A stretch of DNA of 63,241 bases, the filler included, from Perkinsus chesapeaki ATCC PRA-425 (Eukaryota; Protista; Perkinsozoa), in assembly GCA_013115145.1 (NCBI GenBank). It is 6 parts of 6 records of this genome, joined end to end, with 100 filler letters (N's around TTAATTAATTAA, not from the genome) between each part and the next. Parts side by side here need not be neighbours in the genome. Positions count along the whole stretch, not along the records: positions 1 to 21,554 come from JAAPAO010000593.1; positions 21,655 to 37,809 come from JAAPAO010000710.1; positions 37,910 to 53,704 come from JAAPAO010000720.1; 3 more parts are not named here. One strand, 5' to 3'. How positions within the stretch are numbered: position 1 is the stretch's first letter; each line of letters starts with the position of its first letter. Shown one piece after another: positions 4,901 to 52,458 of the stretch. The notes below the pieces were generated by a model. The model was not told the DNA's origin. It did no database searches and was given only the letters and a program-made list of their open reading frames with translations. A program made the position numbers and the translations under genes.

Positions 4901-7900
4901 TCGTTTAGATCCGCGGGCAGAGGACATTTGTGAGCTTCGGGATCGTCGTAGATTTTCTGAGGGAGAATGCGTAAGGTGGAAATACGAGAAGATATTTGCA
5001 TACCCGGAAGGAGTCGATATGGGATGCAACTTTCTCGGCGAAGCCTTGGAAAGCGGGCAGACTAGCAAGTGTGAGGATCTCGTTCCATTCGGTCGGGCCG
5101 ATCCTGAGGAGACAGGTTGCAAAAGCGAGAAGCGGTGGAGTTAGTCTACCAATCAGCAGGGGGTTCGTCAGGGCCGTCGGCCTTACCGCGAGGACCGGTT
5201 AGTAGGAAGCCCAGCTCGGCTTCATCTAAAATGGGAATACAATGTTAGGTATAAATGTAATGAGGAAGAGGAAGCATAAAAATAATATATAAATGAGGTG
5301 GCATAGAACAAGATATTCAGAACGCTTTTAGCAGGTAGCCCTACCAATCTCATTGTTCCCTTGAAGAATCTTCAAACAAAGCGAGAAGGAAAACAACAGC
5401 TTGTGGGCCTCGAACAGAGCACGACAAACGTTCTGGTAAACCAGATACGTCAAGTAGTCGTTGAGGATACCAAGCCGCTCGCTGAGAACCTGTGAAGCGG
5501 ATCTGCGAACAGTCCAACGCTCCAGCCGACCTACCTCGCTCTTAGGTGCGTTGTCGATTCCCATACTGAGCAGATTCTGGTACCACTGCAGCGAGAACTG
5601 GTACATAGGGTCGATGGTGATGAGCTCCACAATACAGAAGAACATGATGCTAGATCGGAAGGCGACTGGATGGTAGGATGTTCGAGCCTCGTCGATCTCC
5701 TTCTCTGTTACCTGAGTAAGTGCCAGAAGATTCACCGCTCAAAGACGACCTTTCTAGCGCGAGTCCGTCTGGCCGGAAAAATGTCTATAAAAAGCATCGA
5801 GGGACATAATATACGATTTCCCCTCGGTGAGGGACCGCATTAGAAGGCAATAAATATGTTATAAATTCGCCCAGCGATGAAACAGCCTCCTCTTCTCACC
5901 TTCGCCTCTTCGACCTTAGCGTTGATCACCGCACTAGTCTCCTTGCTGACAGCCAGCGTGTTAATAAGTGTCTCATCTTCCAGGATATCCCCTTCACTAG
6001 ATGCCAACAATCTCAAGATCTCATCCTCTATAGTCTTCAACTGCTTCGCCATATCAGCATTGTCCTTCAACAACTTCGCCTTCTTTTCCTCCAATTCCGG
6101 CGCCTCCTTCGCCACAACAATGCCAAGCATCTGGTCCACCAAGCCGTCCATGGTAATGGCGAAGTTCAACAGAGTGACCTTCACCGATGTTTCTGGCGAG
6201 TAGTGTGGATTCGGCAAAGTCGTCGTGATGAAAAATCTGAATGTATCCATATAAGTGACGGTCTTGTCTCCGAGCTTCATCACGTAACCGGAACCGTCTC
6301 TAATTTTCTGCTGCAACAGAATCGGCTCCAGCGCCGGGTCGAGCTCCTCGCCGACATTCTCAAGAAGTATCCACTTGCCAAACTGAATGCCGAGCTCGAG
6401 CGTGCGGAGGAAATTCGGATCACTGAGTTTGCAGGTTTCAATGCCGGCCTCGCTTTGCTGCTTCCCGAGGTTCTTGATGAACTTATTCGCTTGTCGTTGC
6501 GGATCGATCATCAACGGCCATCTACTGCTGCTGTCGATTATGATGGCGTTCTCAACAGAGAGGTTGTCCTGTGGAAGGCTGCAGACGACCCACTGCTGGA
6601 TCTTCACAGGCTCCCCCAAAACCTGACCGGAAAACTCAGTCCTTTCAAATTCTCATACAAAAATGATCGGTCGAACCAAAAAGGTATGATCACAAGTGTT
6701 GAAGACCTTCTAAAATTTGGTGAATTTTCACAAAGTCCTGCCGCATTTTTGCAAACAATATAAATTTAGTTACGATGACGACTCGGCGAGAAGTTTGAAT
6801 GCTCGAATGGAATCCGCTGAACGGAGGAAGGCCGAGAGATCTTCCTTTCATCGGAATTAGATTCTACCACTAGGTAATGCTCTCAACCAAGAGCAACCAA
6901 GACTAACAATCTTATTATTGCGAGAAGTTGGATCTTTCGATACAACTTGGAGTAATTATTGCTCTCAGCTTGAGCGGGTGAGACTTTCCGGCATGGGATC
7001 TATCAGGGCAACTCAGACCTACATCAAGCATGCGGCAGCCAGGAGAGTGATCTACTCCTTCCTTATCGCAGGTCTCCATCCATCTGAAAGAAAAGAAGGC
7101 CATTGAAAAAAGTTGACGATAAAAGACGATAAATGATAGAAAAGGGGTCATTAAAGGACATCAAAGGACATTGAAGGACGCTAAAGGACATTAAAGGACA
7201 TTGAGAGACACTAACGAAGATGCTAGGAAATCCATCGACTTTTCAGCAGTAGTATTCCAAACCGAAAGCTTTGAAGGTCGGCAACTTTCGTTCGGCTAAT
7301 ATTGCAACTCCAACTGCCGCAAGATTCCCCTTCGCCAATGCATACCGCTTTCAAACGAGAGATGGGATACCACATTTGGTATCAGACTGATGATCCACCA
7401 ATTGAACCACCGTGACCTACTCTTTTTCGAATCCAGTCCTGTACGACGCCACAAACGGTCCGGCATATGATACCATACCAGCAGCGACCAGAGCATCTCC
7501 AGGCAGCAGCTCGTACCTACCAATACCCAGTTTCGAGGAAACCGGACGAGATTAGTCACTTTTCACTGAGGCTCTTCACGTTGCTCGTCCATCGATCCTT
7601 CTCTCCACCAAGACCGCCGATCAGCTTGTTGGCTCTCTCCAGTTTAACCTGTCCGCGCGACTTCAACCGTTGCCGGCAAGGACCATCCTACCGCGCACTG
7701 CTCCATATCGTGCTTCAGCTGCTCTTGCTTGGCAACTGCCTCGTTATAGTCCTTTTCCAGCTTTTCTAGCTTCTCCTCAACGCCTATTAAAAACCGTCTC
7801 AAGGTGATCCTCCAGCATCCTCCTACTTCGAAGCTCGGCCCTTGCTGCGTTCAACTTAGCCATTGTAACACTGAGCTCTTCCTCAGCGGCTTTGAGTTTT

Positions 7901-10900
7901 TGCCGTTTTGGTTCGACACTCCTTGCCACATGATGGTACTTGAACATTGCTCTTGCCCACATACAGAGAGCCTGCAAGAGAGGAAAACGGGTGCCATCCC
8001 ATAAGACTGCCAACAGCACCAGCTGACCAAACTTCGATCTGTTTGACAGGAAATAGAATCTCGCATTCCTTTGATCATCAAACAGGGATACGGAGTTACA
8101 TTTCTTTACCTTACTTTTGCACCCCACAGAACGTCATAAGCTATATAGCGAGTGAACAGCAATTTCCAGCAACCCAGATAAGTCTCACCTCGCAAGCCAC
8201 CGATGCTTTCTTGATCGCAGCCGGATCGAAATCCTCCCTACCGATGTACGGCTCGATGTTAGAGATAACCTGCCAAACCTTCACAGTTGTCCACCATTCC
8301 ACCGGAACTTGCCTTCTCTGGAATGTTGTCTTTATCATACGCGAATAGCTTCTCCAGCAGCCCCTTAGGGTCGCTGAGAACCTGGCTCTTGGCGCTCTCC
8401 CAGTAGTCCGGGATTTTCTTGCCGGGCTTCTCAGGGTCGTTCTTCATAGTCGGTTTGACCTGAAGTATAAGAACGCTTTTACCAGGGATCGAACCTACGC
8501 CTACCTCGAACATAATGCAGATAGCCTCCAATGTGAGCTTGACGCCACCTGGTGGATTTGCCAAGGCCTTTACCTACGAAAGGACACTCTAAGATCCCCA
8601 ACTATTCAGAAGGAATGTGGTTGGAAAACAGACTGATGCCCGTTTTTTCGCTTTTTCTATCAGAATTTCGTGCACATCTCTGCAGCACTTCTCGAGCATT
8701 ATAACACATTTGCAGGGATCCAGAGATATCGCTGCAAATGTTGCACCCTCAGCTGATGCATGCATACCGAGGCTCGGCTACCTCTTGAATATGGCTCAGC
8801 TTGAGGTTCTTCAAGCACTGCACCGCAACCTCCAATGCCGGTAAGGCTTCATCGAGATCCTTCTGAGCATCATCCTTGATTTCCTGGGCCACTGCAGCTT
8901 GAGCCGTCGCCTCTTCCTCCTGAAGTTCGAGAAGGATATTTTTTCGTTAAAAAATCTTCCCAAGACATCGCCAAATTTTCTGAAATTTCAACTTTTCTCT
9001 ACATAATAGTAGTGCAAAACTTGAACCTTCTGTCAGCCAAGACTGCCGCTTCCAAGTAAATCATTTCCCCGCCAGCCCCCAGATTTGGGTTTTTGTTGAC
9101 CAACTATCGCCTTCGCCCACACCAACCTGCTTTGCAACAGCTTCCTTAGTGACGGCCGCCTTTGCCTTATCCTCAGTGATAACAATCATCATCTCTGCCA
9201 CCTACAACTAAGTCTATTACAGCGATCACAACGGCACCACCTACCTCCTTGGAAGTCTTCTCCAGCACCGGTTGCATCGCCACCAGTTCCGTTTCCATCA
9301 CAGCGACCTGAGAAAAAATAAACGGAATTCCGAAATTTCGGTATTTCCCGTACGGCTTGGCCGGCCTCGCTGAGCTTGTCCAATCCACTCTGAAAGCGCT
9401 GCCGTAAGGTCTCTACCTCGAGTCTTTTATCACGAAGAATCTGTGCGTTGAGGAAATGCAAGATTTACCAAGACAGCAAGTTCCTTGCCTTCTTGAAGTT
9501 GGAAATGAGCGTAAGGTAGCTGGTAGGTGTGACGTAGCAGTGTCGCTTCAACTCGGCAAGGAACCGGAGCCTGGCGGCTTCGACGCTCTGGTGGATGACG
9601 CGGAAGGTGGTCAAGACCCCCTCTGCGTTGGGCAGTTTGGTGTCCTAAACACGGCTTAAATCAGCGATGATGAGAAAGTATTACGTCGGCGAGGAGCTGT
9701 TGTTTAGCCACATTATAGAGGGCGTCTGCGGGCCATTCGGCAAACCAGTCAATTGTACAGCAGTTAACCAGAGACGGGAACATACGTAGTCTAGTACGGA
9801 AAGCGTCGCCCACAGGAGAGAAAGCCAGCACCTACAAAATAGGCACAGGTTCGAATCCCAGCAGCGGCACTTCAGGCACTTACCACATGGATATTTCGTT
9901 TGACTCTATTGAGGTATGTATTGAACAGGTTGGTCTTGGTAGGCTGCAGGCCAGCCTGGCTGCATGCAGCGCGACAAGTCTGGCTGATGGCGTCCATGTC
10001 TTCCAGCTTGTACCTGTATAAGACAAAATCGACTGCAAAAAATTACGGAATTTTGCCTGTAAAAACGACGACAAATTTTAGTTTTGCTGGAAATTCTCCA
10101 CTCTTAAAGAAGCATGTGAAATAATGCAACAGCAAGGCAGATCCGAAACTTACAGATTCGGAACGTCGCCAGAGTTGAGGATGTTGTTGATCGCCTCGAC
10201 CATTTGCTCGTTGATAATTTGCGTGTCGCAAAACAGGAACACTTGCGACTTATCTTCGCAGCCGCTGACCAGTAAGCACTTCCGCAGGTCATCACGGAAT
10301 TCGTTCATACCATATCTGGGAAACAAATTGCATCGCTCCGCTAGAAACTGCGTACCCTTTTGCAACTTCAATTTGGAAACACTCAAAGTCGGAGATGAAG
10401 CTTGCCAGTCGAGACAAGCTCTGTCGACCGCTTCCGCCGACTCCGAGGAGCAAGGCGTTGCCGCTGGGCTGACGGATAACCCTGAAATGGAAAAATGCCG
10501 TCGGTCGGGATCGAACTCGCGCCCTTACCTGCATATCTTAGCTACATGCTCGCACGCGTTGAAGAACATAACCAGTGGCATTTGGTGGGTATTCGAGTTG
10601 TTGTAGTCTTCCAGGAATGTCTGGAAAATCGCGACTCCGAAAACGACAGCAAAATGCTTTCCGCGCACCTCCATCGCTGACTGTATTTTCGAGAGGTCTT
10701 CAATCTCTACGTAGAACTTATCGTCACCCGTAGAAAGGAAGTCTCCGAACACCAGCGCTGGTTTATCGTATACCTGTATCGAAAACACTACAAACGGTCA
10801 CATATTGACAACGTAAAAGTCGTTTGTTCAACAAATAGTTGAGGAACCAAAATACGCCAGGTCCAAGTCCAGAACTGCACCAGTTGAGTTTTCGAAAAAC

Positions 10901-13900
10901 GAGATTGGTAGTTTTTCGGTGTAGTTGAAACAAGACCACCCCAGGCGGCACGGTAATACGCCGATATTAAAGAAGAGGTAGAAAGCCATCGCCTACCGTG
11001 CGTGAGCGTTACCTCGTCTACAGTAGGACCGTTAAACATGGCAATTCGTTTCCGGCATTGCTCGGTGAACCAAGCCCGATCCTCATCATTAATAAGTCTG
11101 TCGCCGTAGACTCTTATATTCTCATGGCACCAGCACCGCACAACCACCACTGGCTCGCTCACCTTCTTAGGTGACAATGAGCAAATACCTGATCACAAGA
11201 TACGATGTAGTATAAGATAGGATGGACAAGGTGAATTAAGATAATGAGATGCAAGTGAGGATGTCTACACATGGTCGACTGCATGACCAGTAGTTAGTTA
11301 CTAGACAACACGTTCATGTGTCTAGAAAATCCCACTGGAAGTGAACTGAGTACGTCTGTTAGGTTTGTCTAACAACGGCGAATGGCGCCAGCGTTGGAAA
11401 ATAACAAGAGGGTGATCAGAGATCTCGATGGTGTTGCACACCGGCAACTACATGCGCCACGATCGAGCGTTTGGTTCACCTCTCATAAGGTTATAGAGAG
11501 CAACAATGAGACAAGACTGCATGTAGCAAAATCAACAATACGGATGCCTATTAGCACCAATTAATCGTTAAGACGAAATGTGTCAGCTCCCTACCCTGAA
11601 AAACTTTCCAAATATCTCTCAAGTTGAAAGTATAATGGCTCTTCGCGGGGGTCGGCAACAGCTCCTTGTGCACCGTCTGGAATATCTCGTACGCTCCGGC
11701 GACCAGTGGGTCCTTCAGACGTCGAACGGGCTCCTCGAAGCCGGCCAAGAAGTACTCAACGATCGTTTGGAAAATCCACTCCACCGAGGACCGCTGCATA
11801 TCAATTGCGCAGATCATATTGTGATGTCGCTTCAACCTCTCCGTGATGAACGTTCGTCCGCCGCCCGGCGGGCCCATCGCCGAGATATAGGTGGTATCGA
11901 TGATCTCCTGGAAAGTGAGCTCCTTTCTGTTATACCAGCCACCGTGGTCGTGCCATTGCCTTAGCAACTCGATAGGCGGCTGGGCGCCATAGTACTCCTT
12001 TTGGGGCATGTTCAAATCGTCCACGAAGATGACCAATTGCTTCCCCGCCGGCGGCCCGAACACTCCTCTACGGCGCTTCTCGGTTTTGGAGTCAAGGAGA
12101 TCTTGCAGCTGGTTCACTTGTGTTTGTGCCGAGAAATTGACAAAGACGCTTTGATAGGTGTCAGGCGCTTCCTTCTGGAGCCACTGCGCGGTGTGAATGC
12201 TCTTGCCAGTACCGGTGTTGCCGAATATGAGAACGTGGTTGCCCGCGGTGACCAGCTTGGCCATCACGTGGGTCAGTTGTATACTGTCGATGGTCGGCAC
12301 CACTATAGAATCGTATACGGCGTTTCGAGGGATCTTGAAGTGCGGCACGGTATCGAGCCACTTCGTCCACTTGTAGCCGGGGACTTGGCTCTCCTCCATT
12401 TCCACAGGCGCGCAGCACCTGAACAAAAATCGCCCAGACCGCAGCGGAGCGACGCGGAGCCCTACATCTCGTAAACACAGCCGCTCGTGTTCATCCTCAA
12501 GAGGGTTCTGTCGAAGCCAAGATTCTCGCCGTGCTCGATGAACCACTGGCTGACCTTCGGTCGACTGTCGGCCTCGCAAGCCGCGCCGATCGACCAAACC
12601 GCGCAGAACAGGAAGATATCTTGAAGGTGGTCAGATGCCAGCTTAACCACGTCCGCTTGGGTGATTTTGCGGCCTTCTTTGGGTTCATACTTCTCGAAGT
12701 AGCAATCCATGAGGCGGAAGAACGAACACAGGAGATTGTTGTCGACGGTACCTAAACCACGGCATGCTAGCCTAACGGTAGAGCATGCGACTAGTATTCC
12801 AAAGGTCGCGCGCTCGATCCTCTCACTTGCTATTTCCTTCGTATTCCTCCTAATAAATGTTATCGCAGGCAAACAGAACTCCGTCGTCCACTTGTGCAGG
12901 TGCTGTCTAATATCATCCGTGAAGTTACTCGGCAATCTCTCGATCCACGATTTCACCAACGGCTCCAAGCCGAGAGCTGTGGGCTCCATAAACACCATAC
13001 CGCATCGACTCACAGTAGCCGGGGAGGCCACCGCAAGGTCCTCAACTTCGAAGATCATTCGGACCTCCGGCGTCAGCGCTATGATCTCCCCGCTGGTCAG
13101 ACAGAGCTTCTTGTTGTCATCGAGGACAGTATTCATCGACTCGATCCACAAGGCATCGACAGGACCATCGAAAATGACCCATTGGTTGTCCGAGCTGCCG
13201 GCCTTGTTGTCGCTGACCGCGCGCCTCAAAAGCTCAGAGGCAATGCCGTCGCTCCATTCGTGAGTCACTTCATCGAATGCACCATAAAGCTGCGCCTGTG
13301 TGATAGCCTTCGGGTTCAGCACGTGCGTCTGGACGCACTCGTAGCCACCATCACCGTCCTTCTTCAGCTTCGTCATCGTTTGCTTCAACATTCGATAATT
13401 GGTAGTCTTTCCGGCACCAGTCGGACCAACAAGCATCATACCGTGGCGAACCTTCAGTGTGTCCAACAACTGGACGACCTTCACCACAAACCATTCCGTG
13501 CCTTGCACATTGTTTTTCTCAAAGATCTCCTCGAGCGCACCAGAAAGATTTCCATAGTCGACCTTGGGCCGCTCCGTGGTGGGAAAAAGATCAGAAATGA
13601 TGTTTTCAAACAGAGGCAGGTCGTCCTGTAGGAACTTCGGCACGTTGACGTCCCGTAGAGCTCGCAGGACTATCTGGTCTTCACCGAGCTGATCACCGAG
13701 GGTTCGCTTCAGCAGTCCACAAGCGTCGATCGTAGACTTCACCGCTCTCATACCGTAATCATAGTGATCTTGCGCCGACAACTGACATGTCAGAATAAAC
13801 TCGACAGCGTTGCAGCGCGCCGACTCACCTGTTCGCTCGAGAGCTTGAAGGTTCCGACCATTTTCCTGGCGTATCCTCGAGCGGCTTCAAAGCCGTAGGC

Positions 13901-16900
13901 GTAGAGCATGATCTCTGCGATGAGAGCGTAGTCGGGAACCATCATCGCCATTGGACGGAACAGCGCCTGAGGAGGAAGAGTGAATGATAGTCCATAAATC
14001 CACAAGTAAAAGCGTAGAAAGCACAGAGGCGAGACGGAGTCGAATTGATTTAAGGACCAGCCTGGTCCGACCAGACACTTGGGCTATCTCTACGTGGAGT
14101 TTGCACGTAACGAAGGTCTCAAGAGGAATAGGGCGCTCTTTAAGAACGTATCAATACGCCGTATCGCCCATGGCGATTCGCCGATACCCGGGGCAAGATA
14201 ACATGATCTCAGCGATACAAGAACTACAAATAAGCAACCCACGTAAGCCCTCTCACCGCAAGATTGTCCGGTAGCTCAGTTCTGCCAGCATAACCAGGGT
14301 TCATGGTAATAAAGACGTTGAAGGTCGGCTTCATAACAATCATGGAGCCCTCGAACTCCAACTCCTTGGTTTCTGAAATGCAACACCTTTTGTGAAGACA
14401 TCCTTCCGATGTTGAATGATACTCAGAATTGACTACGTGTTACACATCATCAGTTATACGTGGGAATTTGCTGACCGAGTTGCCGCAGAAAAATCAAACT
14501 TCGGAGCTGAGAGATGCAATTATCCACCGGAATTTTACGAAGCTTCCTTTCCTCCAAAGTAGGCGAACGCATGTATGTAGGTCGGCAACTTCCTTGTGGT
14601 AGAGAGAAGCCAAAAGACTTACGTGAGTAGCTGGTTAGGGAGGCTTTAGCGCCAAACAGGACAAGCAGCTGTTGAGCAATGACAGACAACACTTCAATGT
14701 AAATACGATTGAACTCATCAAAGCAGCACCTGACGAACGAGATATGTAAGGCAATCGACCATCAGGGGGACTAGCTCAAATGGTAGAGCGCTCGCTTAGC
14801 AAGCGAGAGGCACCGGGATCGATGCCCGGGTTCTCCACTTTTCTAACATTTTAATGAAATAGCCAATAAACCTATATTCATCTAGTCAAAACCTTCAAAT
14901 ATTAATACGGTAATATATATGCTATTACAATATGTATATTATAGCAGTTCAGAATGCACCACAGAGTCGGACCATCACTTACCATGCCCCCGAGTAAGCC
15001 AATCCCTTGAAGAACTTCCCCACCATTAAATAGTCCATCTCCGGTGAGCAGTTAAACACCACACATTGCTTCGCCAATGCCTTCGCCAAATCCTTAGTAG
15101 TCTCGGTTTTACCCGTACCAGCCGGCCCCGCCGGTGCTCCACCCAAATTCAAACTTTGTGCCCCCATCAGAGTCATGTAACACATATCCGTCAGAGGTGT
15201 TATAACCAATCGCATCGTGTTTCCCAAATACTCGTATCCATACGGGAACTCCGTCCGCACGCACTTAACCCACATATTCTCCCTCCCGGTATCGTCCTCT
15301 TCCCAGTAGTATCGAAGCTGGGAGATCCACTCGAACGCGCTGCAGTCTGAGACTCCCTCAGCCGCCAACTTCTGGACAACGTCTTTCGCGTGGACGTCAA
15401 TAACAATGAGCGCTCCAATAGCGGTTCTCTGAGCCCTCGACAGCCCCCGCCGAATCAGCGCCACCAAATCCAGAAGTTGCTGTTGGCACTGCGAATGATA
15501 CTCCTCCACCTTCCCATCCAGTATCGCATCTTCAACCTCGGCAGTCCAGTGCACTTGTGATCCGTTCAGCACTGCTTGCGCTGCATGGTCCAACACCCAC
15601 TCACTTCGAGGCCTCTCCCCGTAGCTGACTACCGCCCTAAACATCACCTCTCTCACCGCCTCCCTCATTTCCTTCTCCACAGACGACATCCACGACTCCA
15701 CATTAACTCCCCTCGTCGCCACCGGTGTAACAAAATCGATAATTTCACCCTCTGCTGAGTGCATTTGCATAATCTCGTTATCTCCCTCAAATGTGAGCTT
15801 ATTCATCGCTTCGAACACCTTATTGAGGAACGGCTGCACCCTAGTAGGATCTTTCGTCTGCGAAAGAATCTCCAAGAGCTCCTCATTCGCCAGGAAATAA
15901 AATCGAGCAAACAGCGCTCGCTTCGACTCCAGATAGTCCTCCAGTCCCTTCTGCACCGTATCCAGAATCACATTGGCTTCTCGAAACTTTTCCAACAGCC
16001 CTTCCGTAGCGCAAATTTCGACCACCTTGGGATTCTGGTGTGCATCCGCCATAGTTTTCCTCCATTTCTGATCTACATTCCTGAATCTCTTGCTCTCACT
16101 CGGCAACTGCTTCACTATATCCTCCGAGTCGAAGATCGGTTGAAGGTACATCCAGGCTCGCTGCAGTTTGAGCCACTCATCCAACGTCTCCGAAACCCTC
16201 ATCAACCTCTCCGCCCAGTTGTCGATGTCCTCTTCAAACACCTTCTTATATAGCGAAAATTGCATCGCCTGCACCGTCACTATGTGCTCATCCAGCATAT
16301 TCAAAGCTTCGTCACTACCCTTAAGAATATACGTTCCGGTATTCCTGTACTCCTCCTTGACGTCAAAGTACACCCCCTCCCACTCCCCCTTCATAGCTGC
16401 CAATTGCTTCTCCAAAGCCCACTCCTTCCCAGCTCTATCCCCCACCTCAGCGATCTCCTCCGAGAACTTATCAATGCCCATCTCCAGCAGTCTTTCCAGC
16501 GTAAATGGCTCCATCTGCGGCCCGACTTTACACCCAATCTTGCCCGATATCATTTCCCAATGTCGATCCCTCATCCCACCGTTCCTCAGCCCCACCACTA
16601 CCGGCACATACGGCTTGAAGTCCTCCAGTTCTTTCTTCACCTGCTCTGCTATGCTACATATCGATTGCAGTTGAGGGTCCTCCTTCAGCTTTCTGATAGT
16701 CTTAAACATAAGCTTAATTCCACCGTTAACTTCACTCTCGCAGTGCCTGAATTCCGGTATAGTATAAATACGCGAGTCTCTAACAACCAGCGAGCAGAAG
16801 CACCCACAATCATGTGTTCCTCAAGCTCCAAAAAGTGTCCACAGCGCGGAAGTATAATGAAAAAGTAGCTTTTCAAGGAGAGCATTGAAAATAAAGTTCT

Positions 16901-19900
16901 ACATTAAATTTCGGAGAACATTAATAGGTATAATATTATATTCGGGTGCCCAATCTAGAGAGCTCGAAATTGATCAGTGCGATGATATATAATATACACC
17001 TATACTGCCTACTGTCTGGCAGACAGCGACTTCCGAAGGAGTGTTGCCCAAGATGAAAATGCAATACACTAATAATATTATATATGACTGGTGTAATATT
17101 ATAAATTAATATAGTAAAATACCAATAATAACGTACACACCGCAAAGTTCAATATTCTTCCGCTCCCGCTGCACCTCTACTACCTCGCATCGATATCCCC
17201 AAACGGTCCCTTCCGCCAAGTAGTTTTATTAACATTCCAATTAAATGCAGTTTTCCAAAGATTCACATAAGGCTCAAAGTCCCTAATCAAAAACGTATCT
17301 TTTCGCACTATAAAGATTTTCCTACCTGCATATCTTTCCCAGCCTCGAGTAGTCCGTCGTATCCCTATTAAAGAGCGTCTCTCTGCTATTAAAGAGCTTT
17401 CCCTGCCCAACCGCGGCATCTAGCCGTCCTCTCAGGTCCTCCAGCAAACCGTGAACCCTCTCCACATCAGCCAGCTTGTCATGGTCCGAAAATGACGCCA
17501 CTTCCCCCTCGAGACTGTCGATGAGGCCCTCAAACGAGTCCTGGCTATCTACCTGCTCCCCCAAGAATCTCTCCCGATCCACATCCAATTTGCGAGATAA
17601 ATTCGTGGCGCGTGACGTTATTTCCAAAGGTTGTCCATATATAATCCAGCGCTCGCGGAAAGTATCTTTGCTCAGCCGAAAAACTGTCCCAAAATTTCCC
17701 AGCGCGTCGTACATCTCAATGCACTCCTGGATCTCGCTCTGAACCTTCCCGACCTCGCCCGGCAGATGATTTAGAAATTCCGTCATCTCCGAAACTGCCT
17801 CGATATCTCCGATTTCTCGCGAAAGTTTCTCGAACATCGTCTCGAATTTCGGTCTGATTTCGCCCGTCATTCTCCCCCTCAAGCGATCGCCTTCGATTTC
17901 CAACACTCCCACAGCGATGCCGAGAAGCTTCTCCGACAGCTGCTGCCGTATATCACCAAAACTGATCCGGAACATGCCGATCTGAACCGGCCCATCTGGC
18001 ACTCGTTCCAGCACTTCCTCGCGACGCTTCAATTTCGCGGTGACCAGTTTTTTCACGTCCGTCGGCGACATCTGCTCTTCCCCGTTTTTGTATTCCTCCA
18101 AAACTTGCTCGACATTCACCCGCAGCAAATCCTCAAATTCCTGCATCGACCTAAGATACTCTTCCAGCCAGTCCCCGTGAACCCGCACCCTTTCCGCCGC
18201 TCGCTTCCTGCATCTCTCAGCCCACTCGTCCGTGTTCCTAAACCCCTTATATAGCCCTCCATCCCGCTTAAAATTCGGGAACAGCAACTTCTCGAGACTC
18301 GACAATCTTCCCACAGCGTTCAGAGCATCATCGAAAACCATCTCAACGGCCTCCGCAAATTCATCCGGCATCTTCGTGTACGCAAAACACGGCACCCGCT
18401 CAACCTCAGTTCTCTTCTCGTCCCCGCCATCCTCCCCAGCCACCGTCACCTCCTTCACCACTTCCCTCTCCGACGCGACTATTTCCGTCACAAAAAGGGG
18501 ACAGTTCTCGCCATTCTCATGGACCGTCTCCTCCACACGGTAGCCCTCCGGCGTGCGAACCTCGAAGAAATTCGCGAATTTGTCCGTGGCATCGACGTAA
18601 ATCCCTTTTATAGTCTCCGACATGATGAACTGTACCAACATCAACACCCTCCTCAACGGCGAGTCCAAATATCTCAGAAAATTAGTCTCGTTAAAATTGT
18701 ATTTTCCCGTGGCGCTCTTGGCCATAAGCTCCTTTACCACCGCTACCCTCATGGCCGGTATCCACAGGTCCCTAACATATGCCATCTGCGCAATGTGGAG
18801 CTCATGAATGGATTTGAATTGATTCAGTGAAAGGCCCTTCAAGACCGCACCGTCCACCAAAAGCGGCGATCGCGCCTTCACCAAGTCCAGGCATTCTAAT
18901 ACACTCGCTTTAATGGCTGCAACAACCTAAACCAGAAATAATTTCGTGGCGCGCGAGAATCTTAGAGCTCTATCTCACCTCTGGACGACTTCTCAACGTG
19001 ACACTCGCAAAAGATACTACTTGATGGCCAACACTCCTATATTTCCTCCAGGGCACCTCTGCCGCGTAGCCTACCCACGGAATCCCCCTTCGCTTGATCG
19101 GCGGCCAACTGATCTCTCTCAGCAAGCTCGCTGTAGCCGCGTTTGTCTTGACACTATGAACGAGCATTATTCGGTTCATCTCCAAGGTGTAGTTCCTTTG
19201 GACCTCGACAACGGCTGCGTCGATGCCGTCATCGAAGTTGTAGGCCTCCTCATCAATGCCAGACGCGAGAGCTAGCGTAATGATCCTCCTCATCCATGAA
19301 GGATCGTGATTTATCTGAACGAGGTTGATGCGAGGCTTTCACACTTATAAAGATACGCCCATGAGACCGGTATTATAATATCTGTGGAAACGGTTGAAAC
19401 TCTTCCTCTTTGTCGTAGCTCAGTGAGTCAGTTCATGTGAGCAATCTCAACTGCTACACATCTACGTTAGTCTGACATTGTTAGATACGCCACCGGCCCT
19501 CTCGCTCCCCACAGATCGAACCTCTCCGCTTACAGATGTCCCAACTGCTGGCACATTCTCGATACATAGTTGCAACTTCATCTTCGATTCCGCGTATCTA
19601 TCACAACACCACCATCAACACCGACAAGCCACGCTCCTTCACCTCCGCCTCAGAACAGCTGCCTTCAATCGATCCGCGAACAGTGAGACGTTCTCCCCCT
19701 CAATGCAGAGGAACTGACTGGACACTTGCGTCCTTGCAGAGAGGCTATCAGCCCAGGAGATCTCAGCCTTTCCGGTGGCTCCATCGAACCTGAGAATGAG
19801 GTCCGTCATCCACGAACATATCAGAAATTAGAATACGGATTCGCGATGTCCTTAAAAACTTGGAAGCCATACTGCTATCCGGGAGTGTCGGGAAATATAT

Positions 19901-21276
19901 CAAACTTCGCCGCTGCGATGGCCAAGCTTTACTGAGTAAAGCTAGTGTATCTTTGAATTCCTGTGCGTGCATCGTTATGTCGCGCTAAATGCTACGAGCT
20001 GCCTTTCACATGAGAACGCGTAACTTCACCAGTTGATGCCATACACTTCTGCATCAGATGCGGCCTCTGAAAATCTTACGAAGTTCTATTTTTATCTATC
20101 CTAAATCCTCATGTCGAATATCTTATTTCGAGGCCGGGAAAATTCTTTCGATCACTTTATATTCCTCGACCAAGAGCGCCAAACGTCGAATCGGTAAATC
20201 TGACTGATTCCTCATATCACCTGTGGGCCCGACACTCCCGCCACAACCCAGCTTTCTCCGTCCCGTCCCTGAACAGGCATCTCCCCGGTAAAGGCCTATC
20301 TCCCATAGCGTGGATGAAAGCCTGAGGACGCGTATCTTTACGCACTGCAAAGATTTTGCTTGGTCCACTCACATTCCACTCGTCAGCGGTGCGCATCCTG
20401 TAGGATATGTCGTCAAAAACTTCCAACGGCAGGCGAGATCTCTCCTCGAAGCTCGCGTCCACATGCCAGCGTAAACCTCTATTGACCATGCATGCCTGAT
20501 ACGTAGAAAATCACGCGCGCCACGAAAATATAAAAAATAGAAAAAGCAATATCTAGACGCGGCCATACATTCGGGTTCAACGCAAACGAAGCCATTCTCA
20601 GATAGATTCTCATCGACTTTGCCAAAGATATTTTGGAGGTCGGAATGCGGTCAGTATGCGAAAGCCTCTTCGAATACTGCTTGCTATCGTACCTCTTGTT
20701 GTTCGTTTCAAAAGGACAATTTCAACTATTGTTGCTTTAAGTTTGTTTATTATCTTTTTCGACCTTCTCAGCAGCCTAGCGCCCCCCAAGCCCCCGACTC
20801 AGCGCTGCTCATCCCGAATCTAAAACAGATACTCCACCGTCTACCTCCAGAGTGTCATCCCCTCTTCGCCGAGCTCCTGGCCGCCACCCTTTGGTCTTCT
20901 GCTTCTCCCTGGAATTTTCCTCGCACAGCAATTCCGGCCTCATTACGACATTCGTATAGTTTTTAGGCCTCACAAATACACCTGTGAAGTTCGTTTAATA
21001 TTTTTCTGGCTACTCGGAAGCTCACCTGACTCTCTCCCAGATGATAGAGACTCCACCAGCCAACACGGACCGAAATTCTGCGTGAAGGCCTAAGATGCAT
21101 GCATCAACCTGAAGATACGCGGTCCATCCTACCTTGAGATCAACTAAAGATGTCCCACGTCGAAGATAACGGTTGCTCTCCCGAACCGATGTAGTTCTAG
21201 ATCTCTTCAAGGAGGGTTTAGCGCCTTTTAATGGCGGCAATCGAGAGGGTGACTTTTCGGAATTGTGACGCTTCAT
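1983..21276 (-). CDS. Axonemal dynein heavy chain, DNAH1-like inner-arm type (multi-exon; 5' start approximate)
   Basis: Exons run in the correct order: N-terminal [14 protein letters not shown] (DNAH1-like), linker (16748-14983), AAA1 [13 protein letters not shown]2 [11 protein letters not shown]3 [11 protein letters not shown]4 GVGGSGRQS, stalk, AAA5 [11 protein letters not shown]6 [16 protein letters not shown]-terminal [17 protein letters not shown]. The junctions I checked splice in frame. Confidence 0.93.
7151..7212. repeat. 10-bp degenerate tandem repeat (TTAAAGGACA)x~6 in a dynein intron
   Basis: ttaaaggaca tcaaaggaca ttgaaggacg ctaaaggaca ttaaaggaca ttgagagaca. Confidence 0.85.
12761..12832 (+). 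pseudogene. Decayed tRNA-Thr(AGT)-like relic, antisense, filling dynein intron 12752-12826
   Basis: GGCATGC TA GCCT AACGGTA GAGC A TGCGA CTAGTAT TCCAA AGGTC GCGCG CTCGATC CTCTC ACTTGCT A has exact 72-nt cloverleaf spacing but broken stems. Confidence 0.65.
14765..14837 (+). tRNA. tRNA-Ala(AGC), nested antisense in a dynein intron
   Basis: Full cloverleaf: GGGGGAC/GTTCTCC acceptor, GCTC/GAGC D-stem, CTCGC-TTAGCAA-GCGAG anticodon arm, CCGGG-ATCGATG-CCCGG T-arm (the typical eukaryotic Ala T-loop), followed by a T-tract. Confidence 0.95.
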
Positions 21277-37809: not shown

Positions 37810-37909
37810 NNNNNNNNNNNNNNNNNNNNNNNNNNNNNNNNNNNNNNNNNNNNTTAATTAATTAANNNNNNNNNNNNNNNNNNNNNNNNNNNNNNNNNNN
37901 NNNNNNNNN
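37810..37909. other. Assembly gap with artificial six-frame-stop linker
   Basis: N44-TTAATTAATTAA-N44. Confidence 0.97.
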
Positions 37910-37985: not shown

Positions 37986-38041
37986 GCGACTAGAATGTTG
38001 CACGCGTGCACAAAGCGCGGGTTCGAACCCTGGTGACAGCA
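37986..38041 (+). pseudogene. tRNA-Ser(AGA)-like 3' relic (5' half missing)
   Basis: GCGAC-TAGAAT-GTTGC anticodon-like arm, long variable region, GCGGG-TTCGAAC-CCTGG T-arm/B-box and TGACAGCA end. Confidence 0.45.
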
Positions 38042-38068
38042 ACATGCTCTGCAAGTGTGACAATGCGC

Positions 38069-38490: not shown

Positions 38491-38927
38491 ACACCACTTC
38501 GATTTTACCTTAATGAGGCATCCACGTTTTTAAGCACTAGAACGAGTTCAGGATCTGAATTTTGTGGATCACCATTTAATACTACTGGTATTGACGGTGA
38601 CGTGACAGAGCAAACAAAAGGACATATCTAGAGACTTATTATTTGATAAAGGGCCTCGGGACCTGGTGCTTTGAGCATCGTTCTCATACGTCATATACCT
38701 TCCTCGATTTGAGGGGATAAGAGGGGCTAATAACCTGAGCGCATGTTCCTCTCCTCGGCAGCCATTGAGTACCTGAATGACTGTGGTGGCGACCAAGGAC
38801 CGCTGCACTAACCACAACTTGTGGTCCACAAGACTGTGCTGACTATTACAACTTGAAACGCGACCAATGGAGTTGCTCGGCAACTAGTAAAATTGAGTAG
38901 TAAACTTATAACTCACTCTCGCAGCCA

Positions 38928-41102
38928 TTAAAGTTGGCCAGATAAAAAATGCTCTATGATAAGCTTCATCCCCATGGGGACGTTGTTAATCAGCAAATGT
39001 CCTCCATTTGACATCTGAAATAAAACGTCGCCTCAATATCCAAGTTAGATTCAAAGCGATGGTGTATACCGCAGAACCCGAATAAGTAACTGTTTCCACG
39101 AGACAATACAGTGCTTGCTGCTGTACCTTAATGAAGGCTAATCGTGCTCCGTTTGTAAACTCAGCAGATTTGATTGTTCCCACGGGACCAACATCAGGGA
39201 ACTGACGGAACAATGATAACAACAGCAATGTCACGACAAGCAGCTCACCTGCAGCTTTGCTTCAGGAGCTTTATTTAATCCATCACCGTAGGCCTTCGCT
39301 CCATGGAGCATAGTCATCCAACCCAGTGTGCCAACAGCGTTAGTCAAATAATCATACTCACCAGCGACCATCAAAACCTAAAGTGATGCTGACACGATAT
39401 ACAGCGCTCACTCAGAATAACCCTACAATGCATGTTAACCATCTAAGAAGCAACTTGCAACATTACCCCTCTCTATGTATTTGCTGGGCAACTAAGGCTG
39501 CTAAGCTGGGCTATGGCTGCTGCTAGTAGAATCGCACGGTGCGACTGGTAAATTTCTAGTTCGACATCCGTGGAGAAGAAATGATAAGCGGAGCCATCAT
39601 GTGAATGTTTAGAACTATTCTAGTGATCTGATTTCGATTTCTACAAGGATGACAAAGTCTCACTTTCTTTCCAGCATCGAGTATCTTGGTCAGATGAAAT
39701 GTTGTATCATAAACAACATATTTGAGGAATGCTTCATGCACCTGAATTGATCGCAGGGATCAAGCTGCCAGCCACAATATTACTTGTGCATCTACGTCCT
39801 CCCATGTTTTGGATACTCCCAGGAAGGCTTGAACTTGTGGATTGTTAAGAAAGTCTCTCGGCTGTTGAACAACAATTTGGTTGAAGCGATCCCAAAAGCA
39901 CTCACGCTCTGGACGAAAAACTTGAAGAAGTGTGACTCAAGGCCGGGAATCGCACGAACATCAATTCTGACAGGACTATATGAAAGTGCTAAGGTTTTTA
40001 ACAAAGGAGCTCACGGGCTTATACTAGCTTTCATCATAGGATCATATGTTGCGCCATCGCAGGTAGCACGAGCACTTTCACACTGACCTGAACAAACAGC
40101 AGTGTATACGCGCAAAGATTCGCAGGCAAATATGCACGAAAACAGTCTGGCAGATGGAACTTCAAACTTACGGGGGTTAGGACTTCCTCCTGGGCCGTTC
40201 GAATTGCAGTCGGAAATTCCTTTGTGACAGGCGACCAATGCTTCGGTCACCTTCTTGGTGCTGAGAGGCCATGATGGATCTCCTCAATGCACATCCACTT
40301 TTTACTCGATCTGAAGATGCTCATCCTTGATCATCTGTGGGCGTCCGTCATACCTGACATCAAGTTAAGATATGAACCAGCCAAGCTGTCTTTCGGAAGA
40401 GCTCACAGTTGATGTGGTCCAATTATTCCACCCGAGTATATCATAACACCACTGAAATCAATTTGGATTTTATTTTTGATAATATCCATGCCCACCATGG
40501 CAGCATAAGTGGCTAAAAGGTACCATGTGCAATATTCCGCCGACGATGATATCTACCAGCAGCTGAAACTCCAACAAGATGCACATCTCGGTTTAGGTCT
40601 GGATACTTCTCGAAGAGGATCTTCATAAAGTTTACCCTGATTAGACTAGCTGAGAGAGTTGGCCAGGGTCTTATGCGGTCTCCTACATATTATCAATTGA
40701 CTCTTGGAGAGTCTGTTCGATGGGCCCTACACTAAAACCAGTCGAGCCTGGAGCATCTACCCAGATCCCGGTTGCTTTATCCGACCAGGAGTATCTGATA
40801 GCTGGCTGGCGTTACAGACTATAAATCTTTTACTCATTCTTGGTGGCCCCGCTTTGCGACGCCACACACGGTCCGTTGATAGACACTGCCGTACCAACAC
40901 TGCTGGCGCCAGGGCCTCCTGCTAGGTAGAGGAATACAGGAGAGCTCGTCGGGTTGACATCTGACTCGTATATGGTGTAAAAGTATCTATATAGCACCTC
41001 AGAGGTACCGTTGAGTTTGGTTGCTGGTTCACCTGTTGTTGTTGTTGCTAACTTGGATATATCCAAACTTCTTCGTGATGGCAGCAATATCACAAGGCTC
41101 AT
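38928..41102 (-). CDS. Serine carboxypeptidase (S10 family), multi-exon; start approximate
   Basis: YFYTIYESDVNPTSSPVFLYLAGGPGASSVGTAVSINGPC (S10 GGPG.SS motif), ILDAGKKV, and a terminal exon (FIK)MSNGGHLL carrying the catalytic His region, ending at TAA 38928. Confidence 0.85.
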
Positions 41103-41762
41103 TAGTGGCACCTGCTGATCCGAACTTCTTAAGACTCGCGCTCGCACCTAAGCAGCGATCGAAGAGTTAACCATTCGCCATACGGCGAGTTCAGACTCTA
41201 GACCCGAGAAGGTTCAGCTCCGACTTTGGGATTTCGAGGCTTATTTCTTACTGTTAAATATAGTGGTTGACGTATAGACTAGAAGCAGCACGGCAAGCAT
41301 CGACTGGGAGATGAGAGAATTATCAGAGAACTATAAAAAATCCATCGAGTAGATCGGTTTAATCACGCAAAAACCTTTCTGAGGGCAAGTATTACAAGGA
41401 AAATCCCCGTGGAAAACAAGGTGGTAAGCTACCACTGGTAACACTTTGAGCTTTGTAGAACGCGTACTTCTACAATCGTGAGTACATAAGTTGCCTCTCT
41501 GAGCAGATTCAGCTCGAATAGGTACGAGTACGGCAAGTGAGCGAGTAACGTTCAATCGAGCGACGAAATTCCGTGGTATAATCGATCACGCTGACGCGCT
41601 CCGAGCAGTGCGCGAAGTAGATTTCCCACCAGAAATAGACAAACTGCAGTATTGGTTTCTAGATCAACGACAGAGCAGTGCTACGAAGCACTATTAATGA
41701 GATATTGCAGCGTAGAAAAGCTATAGTAAAGCTTCTAATCGATACACACGACATTAAAAGAA

Positions 41763-44700
41763 TTACTTTTGAACTAGTAGCTCATGTCCCATAATCGCCA
41801 GTTTAAGATTGAACCGGTACGCTTCAGACAGCCGTGGGCTCAACGACATCACTTTCAACAAGCCGCATAAGGTCAAGACCAAAGCAGTAGCTCTTTCTTT
41901 CTCATGAAAGGCTTGCTGCCTGTCATCCGCACAACCCGAATCTGACATCATTGTCGCCGTCTGTCGACTCATAGACCGTTTGATCGATGCCGCAGCTTCC
42001 GACTTCGGGAAAGCGACACGAGTACTGCAGGGGTCTGATATAAGCAAAATGCGCTCTGAAACGACAGGAAAGCCTATATAAGCAATGCGCCCTTTCAGTG
42101 GGCGCTATGTCGCGAGCCGAATCGATTCAGATGAACACGAATGGAAGAGTACACGAGCAGCGACCCCCGGGGCAAACCGGAATCAGCTATTATGATATTT
42201 TAGAAATTTATCAGGCCTATAAAGGAAGATCTAATGGAAACCAGCATTTGCTGTCCTCAGCGAACAGGTTGGGAAGAAGCTGAGGCTGTTCCGCGTAGGC
42301 GCTGGAGCACCTGACGCGGGCACTACATAGAATTTGTTGGCACTGGGCGACGTAAGATCTCAGACCTTCTACTTCTGCCTTTCAGTTAGAGAACTGACGG
42401 AAGTATGCGATGTTGCCGTTACAGAGCCATCGCATATGAAATTGAGGACTCAAGTCGACATCAGGAACTTGCCAAATGATTAAACATCTTCATGCTTCAT
42501 CTTTTTCATGACGTCTTGCTATTCGTAACCTTCTCAAAGTCTTGCAGACCGTGGCTGATGCCAAGCATAACGGCAGAAGCCTAAGCCGAGAAATGTCCTA
42601 TGCCGGATGGACCCCATACCTGAGCCGCCTGCGAGTGAAGAGATTGATTATGCGTTGAAGGGGATTCCGCAAATTCCTTTGCTGTGTCGAAGTGTGATGA
42701 AGCTGTGTCGTGATCTCCGGCCCTACTCGCTATCTGAGAAAAACTCATAGTCATCAGAAGGTTTCGCAGGGAGATTTGTTCGAGTTGAGTCTTTCCACCG
42801 AACGGTGAATCTCGGTGGACTCAATCTTACCTTGCCAAGCTCATGATGAACAGTAACGCCGGTCAAGATATCATCGCTGTTACCCGTGCTAGATTCGAGA
42901 AAGGTTGATGGATGCTCGTCACCTACGAAGATCGACAGTATTCACGGTCAGGCTACGATTTCCGCGCTACGCATTATGCAGCTCGCAAGATGCAGTACAT
43001 AGGCCGAAGGAAACCCTCACGTTCGGGAAAGTGAACACCTCTATAAACAGTAAAACCTCTCTATTGTTAAGCACGCGAAAGAGAGTGGAAAAGTTTTGTG
43101 AGAACCATTTTTTGCGTAGTACTGACCAATATAACTCTACAACTAACAGGTGGCACGACAGTGAGTAAGTGAGGCGAATGTCGCATGACTCATGTGACAG
43201 AATAGTGCTCTAAAAGCACAGAGAGGAAAAATGTAGCCATGAAGAGTTTTAGGACTTTACAACAGCCTAAAATCTACCTTAGATATTAGTGCAAACTCCG
43301 CACTGCGAAGTGTTATTTCAGATGTCAAATGGAGGACATTTGCTGGTTAACAACTTCCCCGTGGGGATGAAGCTTATCATAGAGCATTTTTTATCTGGCC
43401 TATGCATACGGCGTTTACCTTCTTCGATTTGAGAGGATAAGACGGACTCGCCCACTGAGCGCATGTTCCTCTCTTCAGCAGCAGCAGCCGAGTAACTACT
43501 GCCTCGATTCTGCTGCAGGAAAGCAAATGCTGTTCTGCAGGAGGCCAAAGACTTACGAGGCTTTCCTGTATCCTCAGGTGGTACTCCATGCAGATTCTGG
43601 AGGTTTCAGAGTCCCTGAAGATCTCTATGTGAAATTTTACAAAGTGCTGAATGCGATGCATTCCGGTAAAGCGAGGGCAGACCATCTCCATGCCAGAAAC
43701 GGTGACGTTAATTTCGTGACAAGAATGGCGATATGAATAATTGCCGGCCTTCAGTTGACGGTGACAGGATTTTAGGAGTCATTCATCTGAATCCTGAGAT
43801 TTCTCAGCATGAAAAGCTTCCATTCAAAGCCGTACTATCCAAGACTTGGATTCCAGGTGCGGGGCACCGTGAAGCCCTTCCTTAACACTTCTGGGAGACT
43901 ATACCAATGATATGATATAACTATGGTATAATACCACAATGCATTTCTTATTTCAATGCTGCATCGATACTGGGTATATCCAAGGGAGATATCCTACTGC
44001 GCAGCGTAGCCTACGCTGCGTAGTGTGCACGCAATGTTATCCGACCGATCTGAGAGACCTCCTCAAAAACTCACCCGAGCTTCGAACTGACCATCCCGAC
44101 GTTGCCGAGCGTCATGCATTGCGCACTTTTGCTGCCGAGCCTCGACGCCAAGGAAACGCTTTCGGCGTGGTGCGATAATGAGGCTTCGAGCTGACAGAAT
44201 TATGGATCCAAAAACGCCTAGTCCGAATTGTGCAATACGAAACAGGCGTATGACGTAAGCCTTACTGCACGTTGCAACACAGTTCATCACACGGAGAGCA
44301 GATCTGGGAAACCAAATGCATGGGATATGCAACTCGCTTATCAAAGATAGGAGCTGCCGGTGAGCGACGCCTACATTTCCGAGACGTTCGTAGACGATCC
44401 CCAAATTCACATGAGCGATGAGCCTCTCGAGAGTATCTCGGGCAAGTTCTAGAGCTCGGCCATGAAACTGAGTAAAACCGTGATAGCCTCGAAGACGACG
44501 AATCGCACTTCAAGCGCGCTTGTGTAGTCCCCTAGAGCAGTGGAATCGATGCCGAGACTATTGCAGCAGGCTATCTGGGCTGGTAAATCTTGGCAGGCTA
44601 TCGCCAATTCGAGCGCTTCCGAGTAACTGAAGACGAATGTTAGCTTCAAGCACTCACAATTTCGACTCGATTCGCAGAAGAATTTATTGAATCATTGGAA

Positions 44701-50928: not shown

Positions 50929-52458
50929 GTGTCATCGGGGACTTTCTCCGACATATTCTGTCCGAATTTATACCGCCCTAAAGTGGAGAACGGAAGCAGT
51001 AAATTAGCCAACAATACGGGCTTGCTGCCCGAGCACGGTGACTCTCTGGAGGGGTCCCAACACGACGACGCGCTCGACGATGAAGCTTACGATTCTTCTG
51101 GGAACCGCGAGCCTCCGAAACTTCGCTCTTCAAAACGAACTGCGGCAAAAGCGATGTCTGCAGCTTCGCAAAAGCTCATTGCAGCGAGTTACGATTACCG
51201 AGCCGAGGGCTGTGACGAATGTTCGAGACTCCAATTTTCGGGATGCTTGCCGGCGGACATGGACAGGATTATTGGGAAGCGAGGATATCTTGAAATGGTC
51301 GATAAGTGTTCCAATGAGATGGACGAGCGGCAAAGGGGAGCCACTACACGAGCTCATAAGAAAAATCGGGGTAAGGATGTTGGACTTGTAAGCTGTTCGA
51401 AAATACCCTACCACGACTACGTTGTAGCCGTTACAGGCTCATTTTCCTTTCCTTTATTTCCCCGGGAATGTACATAATTATTTGCTAGTTAATCAGCATT
51501 TAACAATCTGTGGGAAACGAACTTGGGTCGCATGGACTATAGTTGAGTGCTCTACCACGCAAGCAGTCGAACGGCCGATTAGTAATGTCGAGAAGTTACG
51601 GTTGTCAGGGTGGATTTTGGCGGAGGAATGGAAAGCTGGTATCAGTTCCACTAAGAAGCGTCCACGACCTAAGAAACCCGCTGATGAGTAAGTCCGCGGC
51701 AGGGATCGAACCCGGGTTGTTAATATGTTAGAGTGGCGCTCTAACCAGTTAAGCAGACCGAGTACAGGTCCGTTGTGAAGATCGAACCGACACCCAAGCC
51801 TCCGCCTATCAGCATCGAGGACATTCTGCGGGAAACAGTATCCATAGAATCTTCATCAACGCCGCCCTCTTCTCCACCACCGAGCGAGTCCAGCACGGGA
51901 ATGCAGTCGAGTCCTTATCGTTGGACTGCCGAGGAGAATCAACGGTGAGTTTCTGTGTGACTATGTGTTAAGGAAAGTCATATTAAGCCAAGGGGAACAC
52001 GTCGAAACGATCGTGATTGCCGAGCATCAGATTGTGTGATCATCTTTGTTTGGGTTTTATCGGTTCCAGCGCTGGCGCTAAAAGTGATATCGCCGATGGA
52101 ATTGAACTACTTTCCGTGGATGTCCCTTCGCAACTTAGGTTCGTCGACGCTGTTAGCCTTTACGGTCGAGACTGGCGCAAAGTGCACGCTTATGTCGGCA
52201 CCCGCACTAGAGCGCAAATACGGTGGGTTGCTCCACGGCAACTTAACATTATCTCATTGCAGATCACATGCACAGAAGTACTTCCAGTCGCTCAATCAGC
52301 AGATTGCCGCGGTCACCGAAACCTCCAATCTCGAAGATGAGATCCCTGTGGAGATTCACCCTATCATACCAACCAGCAGCGACACCGCTCCCGAGGAGCC
52401 GGCGGCGCCCGCCCACGCCGTTTCTGAGCAAGCAGTGGTAGACTCTTCTGAGACTTAA
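50929..52458 (+). CDS. SHAQKYF-class single Myb/SANT-domain protein (multi-exon)
   Basis: Spliced RWTAEENQR..FVDAVSLYGRDWRKVHAYVGTRTRAQIR-SHAQKYF. Introns inferred at 51371-51607, 51688-51767 and in the Myb domain. Confidence 0.85.
51502..51572 (-). pseudogene. Highly decayed tRNA-like relic in Myb intron 51371-51607
   Basis: Reverse complement: GCTT GCGTGGTA GAGC A CTCAA CTATAGT CCATG CGAC CCAAG TTCGTTT CCCAC. D-arm intact and spacing to the T-loop canonical; other stems broken. Confidence 0.4.
51692..51763 (-). pseudogene. Decayed tRNA (AAC/Val-like anticodon loop) relic filling Myb intron 51688-51767
   Basis: Reverse complement: GCTT AACTGGTTA GAGC G CCACT CTAACAT ATTAA CAAC CCGGG TTCGATC CCTGC CGCGGAC T. 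Intact D-arm, B-box and canonical spacing. Confidence 0.6.

Follow-up and report, generated by a model that had tools for sequence, protein, structure and literature searches.

Can a transfer RNA (tRNA) gene give rise to a spliceosomal intron? The origin of new spliceosomal introns is a long-standing question, and the known bulk sources are transposons. The question is raised here by a stretch of 63,241 nucleotides (nt) from Perkinsus chesapeaki ATCC PRA-425 (hereafter the window), Perkinsus being a parasite of shellfish. Introns of an axonemal dynein heavy chain gene and of a Myb-domain gene in this window hold copies of tRNA genes, intact and decayed, far above chance. We favor, tentatively and with slightly less than even confidence, the reading that some Perkinsus introns were created by a tRNA gene or its unprocessed transcript being copied into an exon, other copies having landed in existing introns. 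The window consists of contigs chained by N-linkers (21555-21654, 37810-37909, 53705-53804, 55063-55162, and 61900-61999), and the finding covers unlinked pieces.

tRNA sequence in dynein and Myb introns

We placed the dynein introns with a spliced aligner, mapping 12 full-length dynein relatives onto the minus strand. Forty-five introns backed by at least 10 of the 12 proteins were retained, intron 12419-12465 (6/12) was added, and the weakly resolved N-terminal introns were left out. The four introns of the Myb-domain gene were taken from protein P0379 (listed as Perkinsus chesapeaki), which equals the spliced translation of that gene at 199/199 aligned residues, introns 51371-51608 and 51688-51767 included. 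The 50 introns so obtained were chosen independently of tRNA likeness, and 29 of them are 40-52 nt long. Splicing was judged from protein homology and one public gene model, by which the relic-bearing segments qualify as spliceosomal introns: their ends are GT-AG and their removal gives a gapless homologous protein (12/12 dynein relatives; P0379, 199/199). Two dynein introns, 9441-9488 and 8270-8312, are of the GC-AG type, each in 12/12 alignments.

A sequence profile and a covariance model were built from 120 unrelated tRNAs of viral contigs. Over the whole window, the covariance model ranked two intact tRNA genes first, followed by 12761-12833 (26.5 bits, E = 1.4e-5) and 51699-51754 (18.1 bits, E = 0.0046); these lie in introns 12752-12826 and 51688-51767 of the two genes, which the preliminary description had called almost wholly decayed antisense tRNA, and we confirm that account for both. 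The profile gave 11 matches at E < 0.5, comprising the two intact genes, six relics in defined introns, and three others (in candidate intron 24940-24982, at one contig start, and in one exon). With the tRNA-Ala intron excluded, 6/49 introns scored at least 6 bits, against a mean of 0.055 and a maximum of 1 in 400 shuffles, so that the enrichment over shuffled introns expected earlier is borne out for the introns of the window. Among short introns (40-52 nt) the count was 3/29 vs 0.0125 in shuffles, and with a T-arm matrix it was 7/49 introns vs 1.6 expected. One of 45 exons reached 6 bits (a dynein exon at 7.7 bits), and none of the 37 presumed introns of two other eukaryote dynein loci exceeded 3.5 bits. 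When the intact tRNA is included, 7/50 introns, or about one in seven, hold tRNA sequence, and both intact tRNA genes of the window lie within introns or predicted introns. The features are as follows.

1991-20500, minus strand: axonemal dynein heavy chain gene (DNAH1-type) with six tRNA-bearing introns; 46 of its introns entered the analysis, the N-terminal part being poorly resolved.
12752-12826, minus strand: 75-nt GT-AG intron, length a multiple of three, no stop; antisense of a 9-nt leader and tRNA positions 1-67, donor GT being tRNA 66-67.
12761-12835, plus strand: full-length decayed tRNA relic, its anticodon loop containing AGT; exon bases 12827-12835 correspond to positions 68-73 and TTT.
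14730-14982, minus strand: 253-nt intron, host of an intact tRNA gene.
14765-14837, plus strand: intact tRNA-Ala(AGC), antisense to the dynein gene, with a T-run after the tRNA.
51688-51767, plus strand: 80-nt Myb-gene intron filled by an antisense tRNA relic with AAC in the anticodon loop and a perfect B-box.
51371-51608, plus strand: 238-nt Myb-gene intron with a weak antisense relic at about 51502-51572.
10482-10528, minus strand: 47-nt intron with a sense tRNA 3′ third, perfect B-box, T5 directly after position 73.
9832-9883, minus strand: 52-nt intron with an antisense tRNA 3′ third, perfect B-box.
8460-8504, minus strand: 45-nt intron, length a multiple of three, no stop; sense T-arm, perfect B-box, T54 at +12.
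24940-24982, minus strand: candidate 43-nt GT-AG intron with an antisense tRNA 3′ part; donor GT being tRNA 66-67, exon 24983-24991 being 68-73 and TTT.
7379-7412, minus strand: sense D-arm/5′-half relic beginning 9 nt into the 337-nt dynein intron 7084-7420.
32924-32995, plus strand: intact tRNA-Gln(CTG), in sense, in a predicted intron at about 32847-33055 called by eye from reading frames.
5490-5534, minus strand: 45-nt intron, real by homology, tRNA likeness not supported.

Introns 12752-12826, 14730-14982, 10482-10528, 9832-9883, 8460-8504, and 5490-5534 were each placed by 12/12 dynein relatives, and the reported location of the intact tRNA-Ala within an intron is thereby secured. The relics give significant profile or covariance matches without a cloverleaf fold and were not called by ARAGORN, which in relaxed mode was abandoned for its 21-193 calls, most of them spurious; with a class II tRNA profile, three already known relics were recovered and nothing further. 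Rfam scored the relic at 12761-12833 at 15.8 bits and gave no tRNA match at 51660-51790. The weaker relic noted earlier at 51502-51572, which has lost A58, is upheld by its two-box score (27 bits, 0/500 shuffles as high) and not by the covariance model (best 3.3 bits) or the profile (0.6 bits).

T-arm/B-box or D-arm fragments had also been read into several short introns. The T-arm/B-box part agrees with the 3/29 count above; D-arm fragments in short introns were not supported, those in 5490-5534, the intron that opens the range given earlier, included, and the one D-arm relic is that in the 337-nt intron. Detection does not account for the excess of T-arm over D-arm relics (4 vs 1), the numbers being too small to claim a bias. 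Removal of candidate intron 24940-24982 restores the reading frame, and the downstream exon resembles a repeat-protein family; Pfam gave no family, and the upstream exon is without family likeness. No Leu-like 3′ end matching the 24940 relic was found among the viral-contig tRNAs, and the short fragments were therefore given no isotype call. At a contig start, a palindromic segment with a B-box (38012-38038) scored 9.5 bits against the tRNA profile, and no gene context was found for it.

Four of the ten dynein introns with lengths divisible by three are stop-free in frame (5490-5534, 8460-8504, 10621-10668, and 12752-12826), and two of the four hold tRNA relics; read-through of these relic introns, of 75 and 45 nt, could in principle occur. 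Exact look-ups of six open reading frames of the window that read through stop-free introns matched in 0/6 cases. P0297, the only named Perkinsus dynein found, is a likely paralogue at 54% identity and has no retained intron at the relic sites.

3′ ends of the relics and exon overlap at the donor

Seven T-arm relics, five antisense and two sense, align gap-free in tRNA numbering. None of them has a CCA end (0/7), and T occupies 14/21 of the sites at positions 74-76 (P = 0.0013; antisense relics alone: 9/15, P = 0.0024). From the lack of CCA and the T-runs after position 73 we infer that the relics derive from a gene or precursor and not from mature tRNA, so the tRNA cDNA proposed earlier is not supported if a mature tRNA is meant. 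T54 lies 12-14 nt from the donor in 4/7 T-arm relics.

The tRNA 3′ end had been placed at the 5′ splice site in both full-length cases. In 51688-51767 it lies 3-4 nt from the donor, and in 12752-12826 it does not stop there at all, running on into the exon. In this intron and in candidate intron 24940-24982, tRNA 66-67 read in antisense form the donor GT, and the nine final exon bases are 68-73 plus TTT. Creation of the intron by the tRNA predicts just such exon ends, matching tRNA 68-76 where the donor falls at 66-67. The motif AAAT at -9 to -6 was present at only 2/51 donors, both of them the tRNA 66-67 donors (a 52nd entry with a mis-set boundary was left out), and AAAT occupies 42/11972 positions (0.35%) in dynein exons; the full match needed at 12752 (4/5 acceptor pairs, A73, and TTT) occurs at 4/11966 dynein exon positions. 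The dynein protein is gapless across the 12752-12826 junction in 12/12 relatives, and the exon has therefore gained no residues. The overlap suggests microhomology-guided insertion into an exon, short complementarity of the RNA 3′ end to its target being seen in 2/5 antisense relics (12752 and candidate intron 24940). Recurrent tRNA insertion, as described earlier, thus holds insofar as tRNA-derived sequence recurs in introns; for insertion giving rise to introns, the exon overlap at two donors is positive but indirect support and does not prove it.

In the mechanism that we propose, a matching exonic break would be the site of annealing for a tRNA precursor, through its 3′ end (68-73 and the U-tail), or for the gene itself, and copying into the exon would follow. 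Where the tRNA has A66-C67, its antisense strand would provide the GT of a donor, and clean splicing, and with it survival, would be limited to inserts that also end in AG; other tRNA copies likely landed in existing introns. The copies would die and the host intron shrink until it approached the 40-52-nt mode. In the short fragments the B-box appears to persist longer than the stems, for which either factor-binding selection or a source element with its stem already broken would be required. The template could be either RNA or DNA, and long terminal repeat (LTR) retroelements are present in the window. Two published observations bear on the steps: tRNA copies of five types number >500 in P. 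marinus, Leu making up 349 (PMC3706591), and tRNA-derived tailless retropseudogenes show target-site complementarity of 2-18 nt (PMC5322556).

Proposed intron creation weighed against its rivals

Several observations weigh against the creation of introns by tRNA copies. The overlap was noticed first at 12752, and 24940, where the intron is not homology-confirmed, is the only independent test. The three other antisense T-arm relics end at least 3 nt before the donor is reached, and exon overlap is absent from the two in sense. At the relic introns, a search for target-site duplication found only the common AG/GT overlap of 2-4 nt. In the 43 remaining introns, the p-values were uniform, with no excess tRNA signal at a sensitivity of only about 6-18% at 20% divergence, and the idea that all introns are older tRNA relics was rejected for this model on that ground.

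Age weighs on the same side. A homologous contig from sequencing run X2, about 82-86% identical in the listed pieces, spans 51688-51767 at near-equal length with two 1-nt indels within the intron, nearby longer introns being skipped. Similarity to protein P0378 stops exactly at the 51371 donor, from which this donor seems to be shared. With one intron present in a divergent contig and the other donor apparently shared, these introns are old and their gain cannot be dated. The X2 contig (window 45600-53700) has about equal depth, as in a hybrid, a polyploid, or a mixed culture.

Other lineages do not settle the matter. Usable intron positions came from just four of 34 metagenome loci (L151, L153, L154, and L155), L145 serving as a mostly intron-free control; many of the other apparent introns in these loci are probably artefacts of a different genetic code. 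Two intron-rich eukaryote lineages (L151/L153 and L154/L155) are without the 12752 intron, and L151, L154, and L155 are without the 14730 intron. These lineages share only 13967-14256 with Perkinsus, 1 of 5-8 positions in range, which is so few that the missing introns neither support nor refute creation.

Neutral decay was simulated in three settings, each given the B-box state that was observed, with a fixed register and with viral-contig tRNAs, not Perkinsus tRNAs, as ancestors. The two full-length relics fit plain neutral decay (9/16 pairs, P = 0.36-0.54), a further point against creation. The four short fragments (10482, 9832, 8460, and 24940) have 0 B-box mismatches and 3/12 outer T-stem pairs vs about 9.5 expected (P = 0.0007-0.0018), and all seven T-arm relics together retain 13/36 pairs vs 23-25 expected. 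Plain decay does not explain a perfect B-box beside random-level T-stem pairing in the four short fragments. The persistence of boxes claimed before is thus seen in the short fragments (P about 0.001); the two full-length relics do not require it. The pattern of the short fragments could arise from B-box selection, from chimeric copying, or from a source element whose stem was already broken.

The rival that survives best creates no intron: tRNA genes nested in old introns would have the intron trimmed around the live gene, and the gene would then die, with more deletions reducing it to a fragment in a minimal intron. We consider it unlikely, yet more probable than any other rival. It accords with a graded series in which intact genes lie in introns of 209-253 nt, full relics in 75-80 nt, and fragments in 43-52 nt, and with the weak relic of the 238-nt intron lying about as far from the acceptor as tRNA-Ala (88 vs 89 nt). 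The neutral decay of the full-length relics and the position of 51688-51767 shared with the divergent contig fit as well, and in C. elegans 264/608 tRNA genes are intronic, with 52% conserved in C. briggsae and fast turnover (PMC3342880). The same explanation needs a chance exon match to the tRNA 3′ end (0.35% for AAAT) in 2/5 antisense relics, or an exact three-codon replacement, and it predicts about 9.5/12 T-stem pairs beside the perfect B-boxes, where 3/12 were found. According to the same paper, introns hosting nested genes are <0.5% in C. elegans, vs 7/50 with tRNA sequence here.

Our preferred reading can be extended to a fuller statement, that Perkinsus makes introns from its own tRNA genes without a transposon, with the precursor priming on an exonic break, the antisense acceptor stem becoming the donor, and shrinkage to about 45 nt keeping the B-box, so that TFIIIC sites are seeded genome-wide. 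This whole chain is doubtful, marginally more so than nested turnover.

It is rather improbable that the relics are kept by selection as RNA polymerase III promoter DNA, that is, as candidate TFIIIC-binding B-box sites (like yeast ETC) or as small-RNA templates, a view in which descent from tRNA genes is incidental and which is compatible with either origin. A B-box kept beyond neutral expectation, the ETC-like trait, characterizes the four short fragments in all three settings of the simulation and not 12752. The stem-pair deficit of all seven relics, the T-runs remaining in register, and the alignment of the divergent contig through 51688-51767 (compared there by indels) while longer introns are skipped also speak for selection, and B-box-only TFIIIC sites do occur and are conserved in yeasts (PMC3395662). 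On the other side, the B-box is broken in the 12752 relic (2 mismatches, one of them at T54), 51502 lost A58, and yeast ETC sites tend to lie between genes (PMC3395662). The test rests on viral-contig ancestors, a fixed register, and four fragments, and the same outcome would be expected from chimeric or pre-broken sources.

Still less probable, at the level of a long shot, is an old tRNA-derived short interspersed element (SINE) or Introner-like family with a B-box and an already broken stem that spread into genes and gave rise to the short introns or came to occupy them, with the full-length relics as separate dead tRNA genes. GGC stands at positions 46-48, before the T-stem, in all four short fragments, and the 9832 and 24940 relics have the same non-pairing T-stem (ACAGG vs CCCA) and 20/28 bases alike; integrases of LTR retroelements are found in the window. 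Against such a family, pairwise identity is otherwise 11-19/28, the anticodon loops differ between the full-length relics, and no terminal repeats, tail, or target duplication were found at the relic introns. Read depth in sequencing run X1 was flat over 51502-51767, while 45-nt repeats elsewhere in the same stretch did attract copies, so that X1 shows no copy at least 85% alike for the two Myb-gene relics, to which this test applies. The earlier statement that the relics are not one SINE family is accordingly right as regards young copies (11-20/28 bases pairwise) and is weakened by the four short fragments, which share GGC and may be one source class.

Chance likeness of short GC-rich motifs to the B-box, to which 17 strict B-box matches in the window (10 outside annotated introns) and the dynein exon at 7.7 bits might point, is negligible for the set as a whole, being contradicted by covariance E values of 1.4e-5 and 0.0046, by 0/400 shuffles reaching the observed count, and by T-runs and GGC in register, although single weak cases (51945-52138 and 51502-51572) may be chance.

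Known systems and other features of the window

The relic introns are best filed with insertion-derived introns and nested tRNA relics. Nested tRNA genes and pseudogenes of Caenorhabditis likewise include intact intronic tRNAs in either orientation with decayed copies beside them (PMC3342880); in Perkinsus nearly all of an intron can be relic, and at two introns the donor falls within the tRNA. Introners and transposon-derived introns (PMC11282704; Amoebophrya, PMC7789003) also insert with or gaining splice signals and are cleanly removed, but Perkinsus fails the Introner family tests that we ran: in place of near-identical introns at unrelated sites, the relics agree at 11-20/28 bases pairwise, terminal inverted repeats and target duplication were not found, and the insert is a tRNA gene. 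The Introner review PMC11282704 mentions tRNA six times, never in connection with tRNA-derived introns. Mammalian tailless retropseudogenes are similarly tRNA-derived, lack poly(A), and are primed by short RNA-target complementarity, but they are 3′-truncated and L1-dependent with 8-35-nt duplications, whereas the Perkinsus relics keep the 3′ end and T-run and show no duplication (PMC5322556).

ETC/COC sites likewise keep the B-box without a cloverleaf; their definition is measured occupancy by TFIIIC, and most often they lie between genes, whereas the Perkinsus relics, candidate sites by sequence, are intronic and have tRNA 3′ ends (PMC3395662). Dada DNA transposons of P. marinus, from the same genus, show numerous tRNA genes as targets of mobile DNA, but they are 4.7-11 kb transposase genes in tRNA A-boxes, and the relic introns are far too short for one (PMC3706591). 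A tRNA-derived SINE is a multi-copy element with head, body, and tail; the relics have neither body nor tail, and the short fragments have GGC in common and include one similar pair. A full-text literature search, which covered few subscription papers, found no description of spliceosomal introns derived from tRNA, whether in Perkinsus or in other organisms; published genome papers and Introner surveys may also be relevant.

If tRNA copies did create introns, a housekeeping RNA gene would be a repeated intron source, a route without a mobile-element family. Retention of the B-boxes, should it also prove real, would make many introns of a gene-dense parasite genome serve as polymerase III factor sites as well. 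Failing both, the window presents an unusually dense case of ordinary nested tRNA turnover.

The window also encodes an ADP/ATP carrier with 95% identity to a Perkinsus marinus protein. Within 55111-63239 lie open frames of LTR retroelements that include integrase domains, and a Thr/Ser-rich repeat region with a 126-nt period (35230-37809) is ended by the contig end. A motif of 12-21 nt, possibly regulatory, occurs four times, at 17595-17615 (dynein intron), 18936-18956 (predicted intron), 20516-20527 (dynein exon), and 25958-25978 (outside genes). A 96-nt inverted repeat (95%; 38936-39031 and 43305-43400) is accompanied by a 78-nt direct repeat (81%; 38685-38762 and 43405-43482); the copies, at 38685-43482, are spaced about 4.3-4.7 kb apart and may represent a local duplication or the ends of an element.

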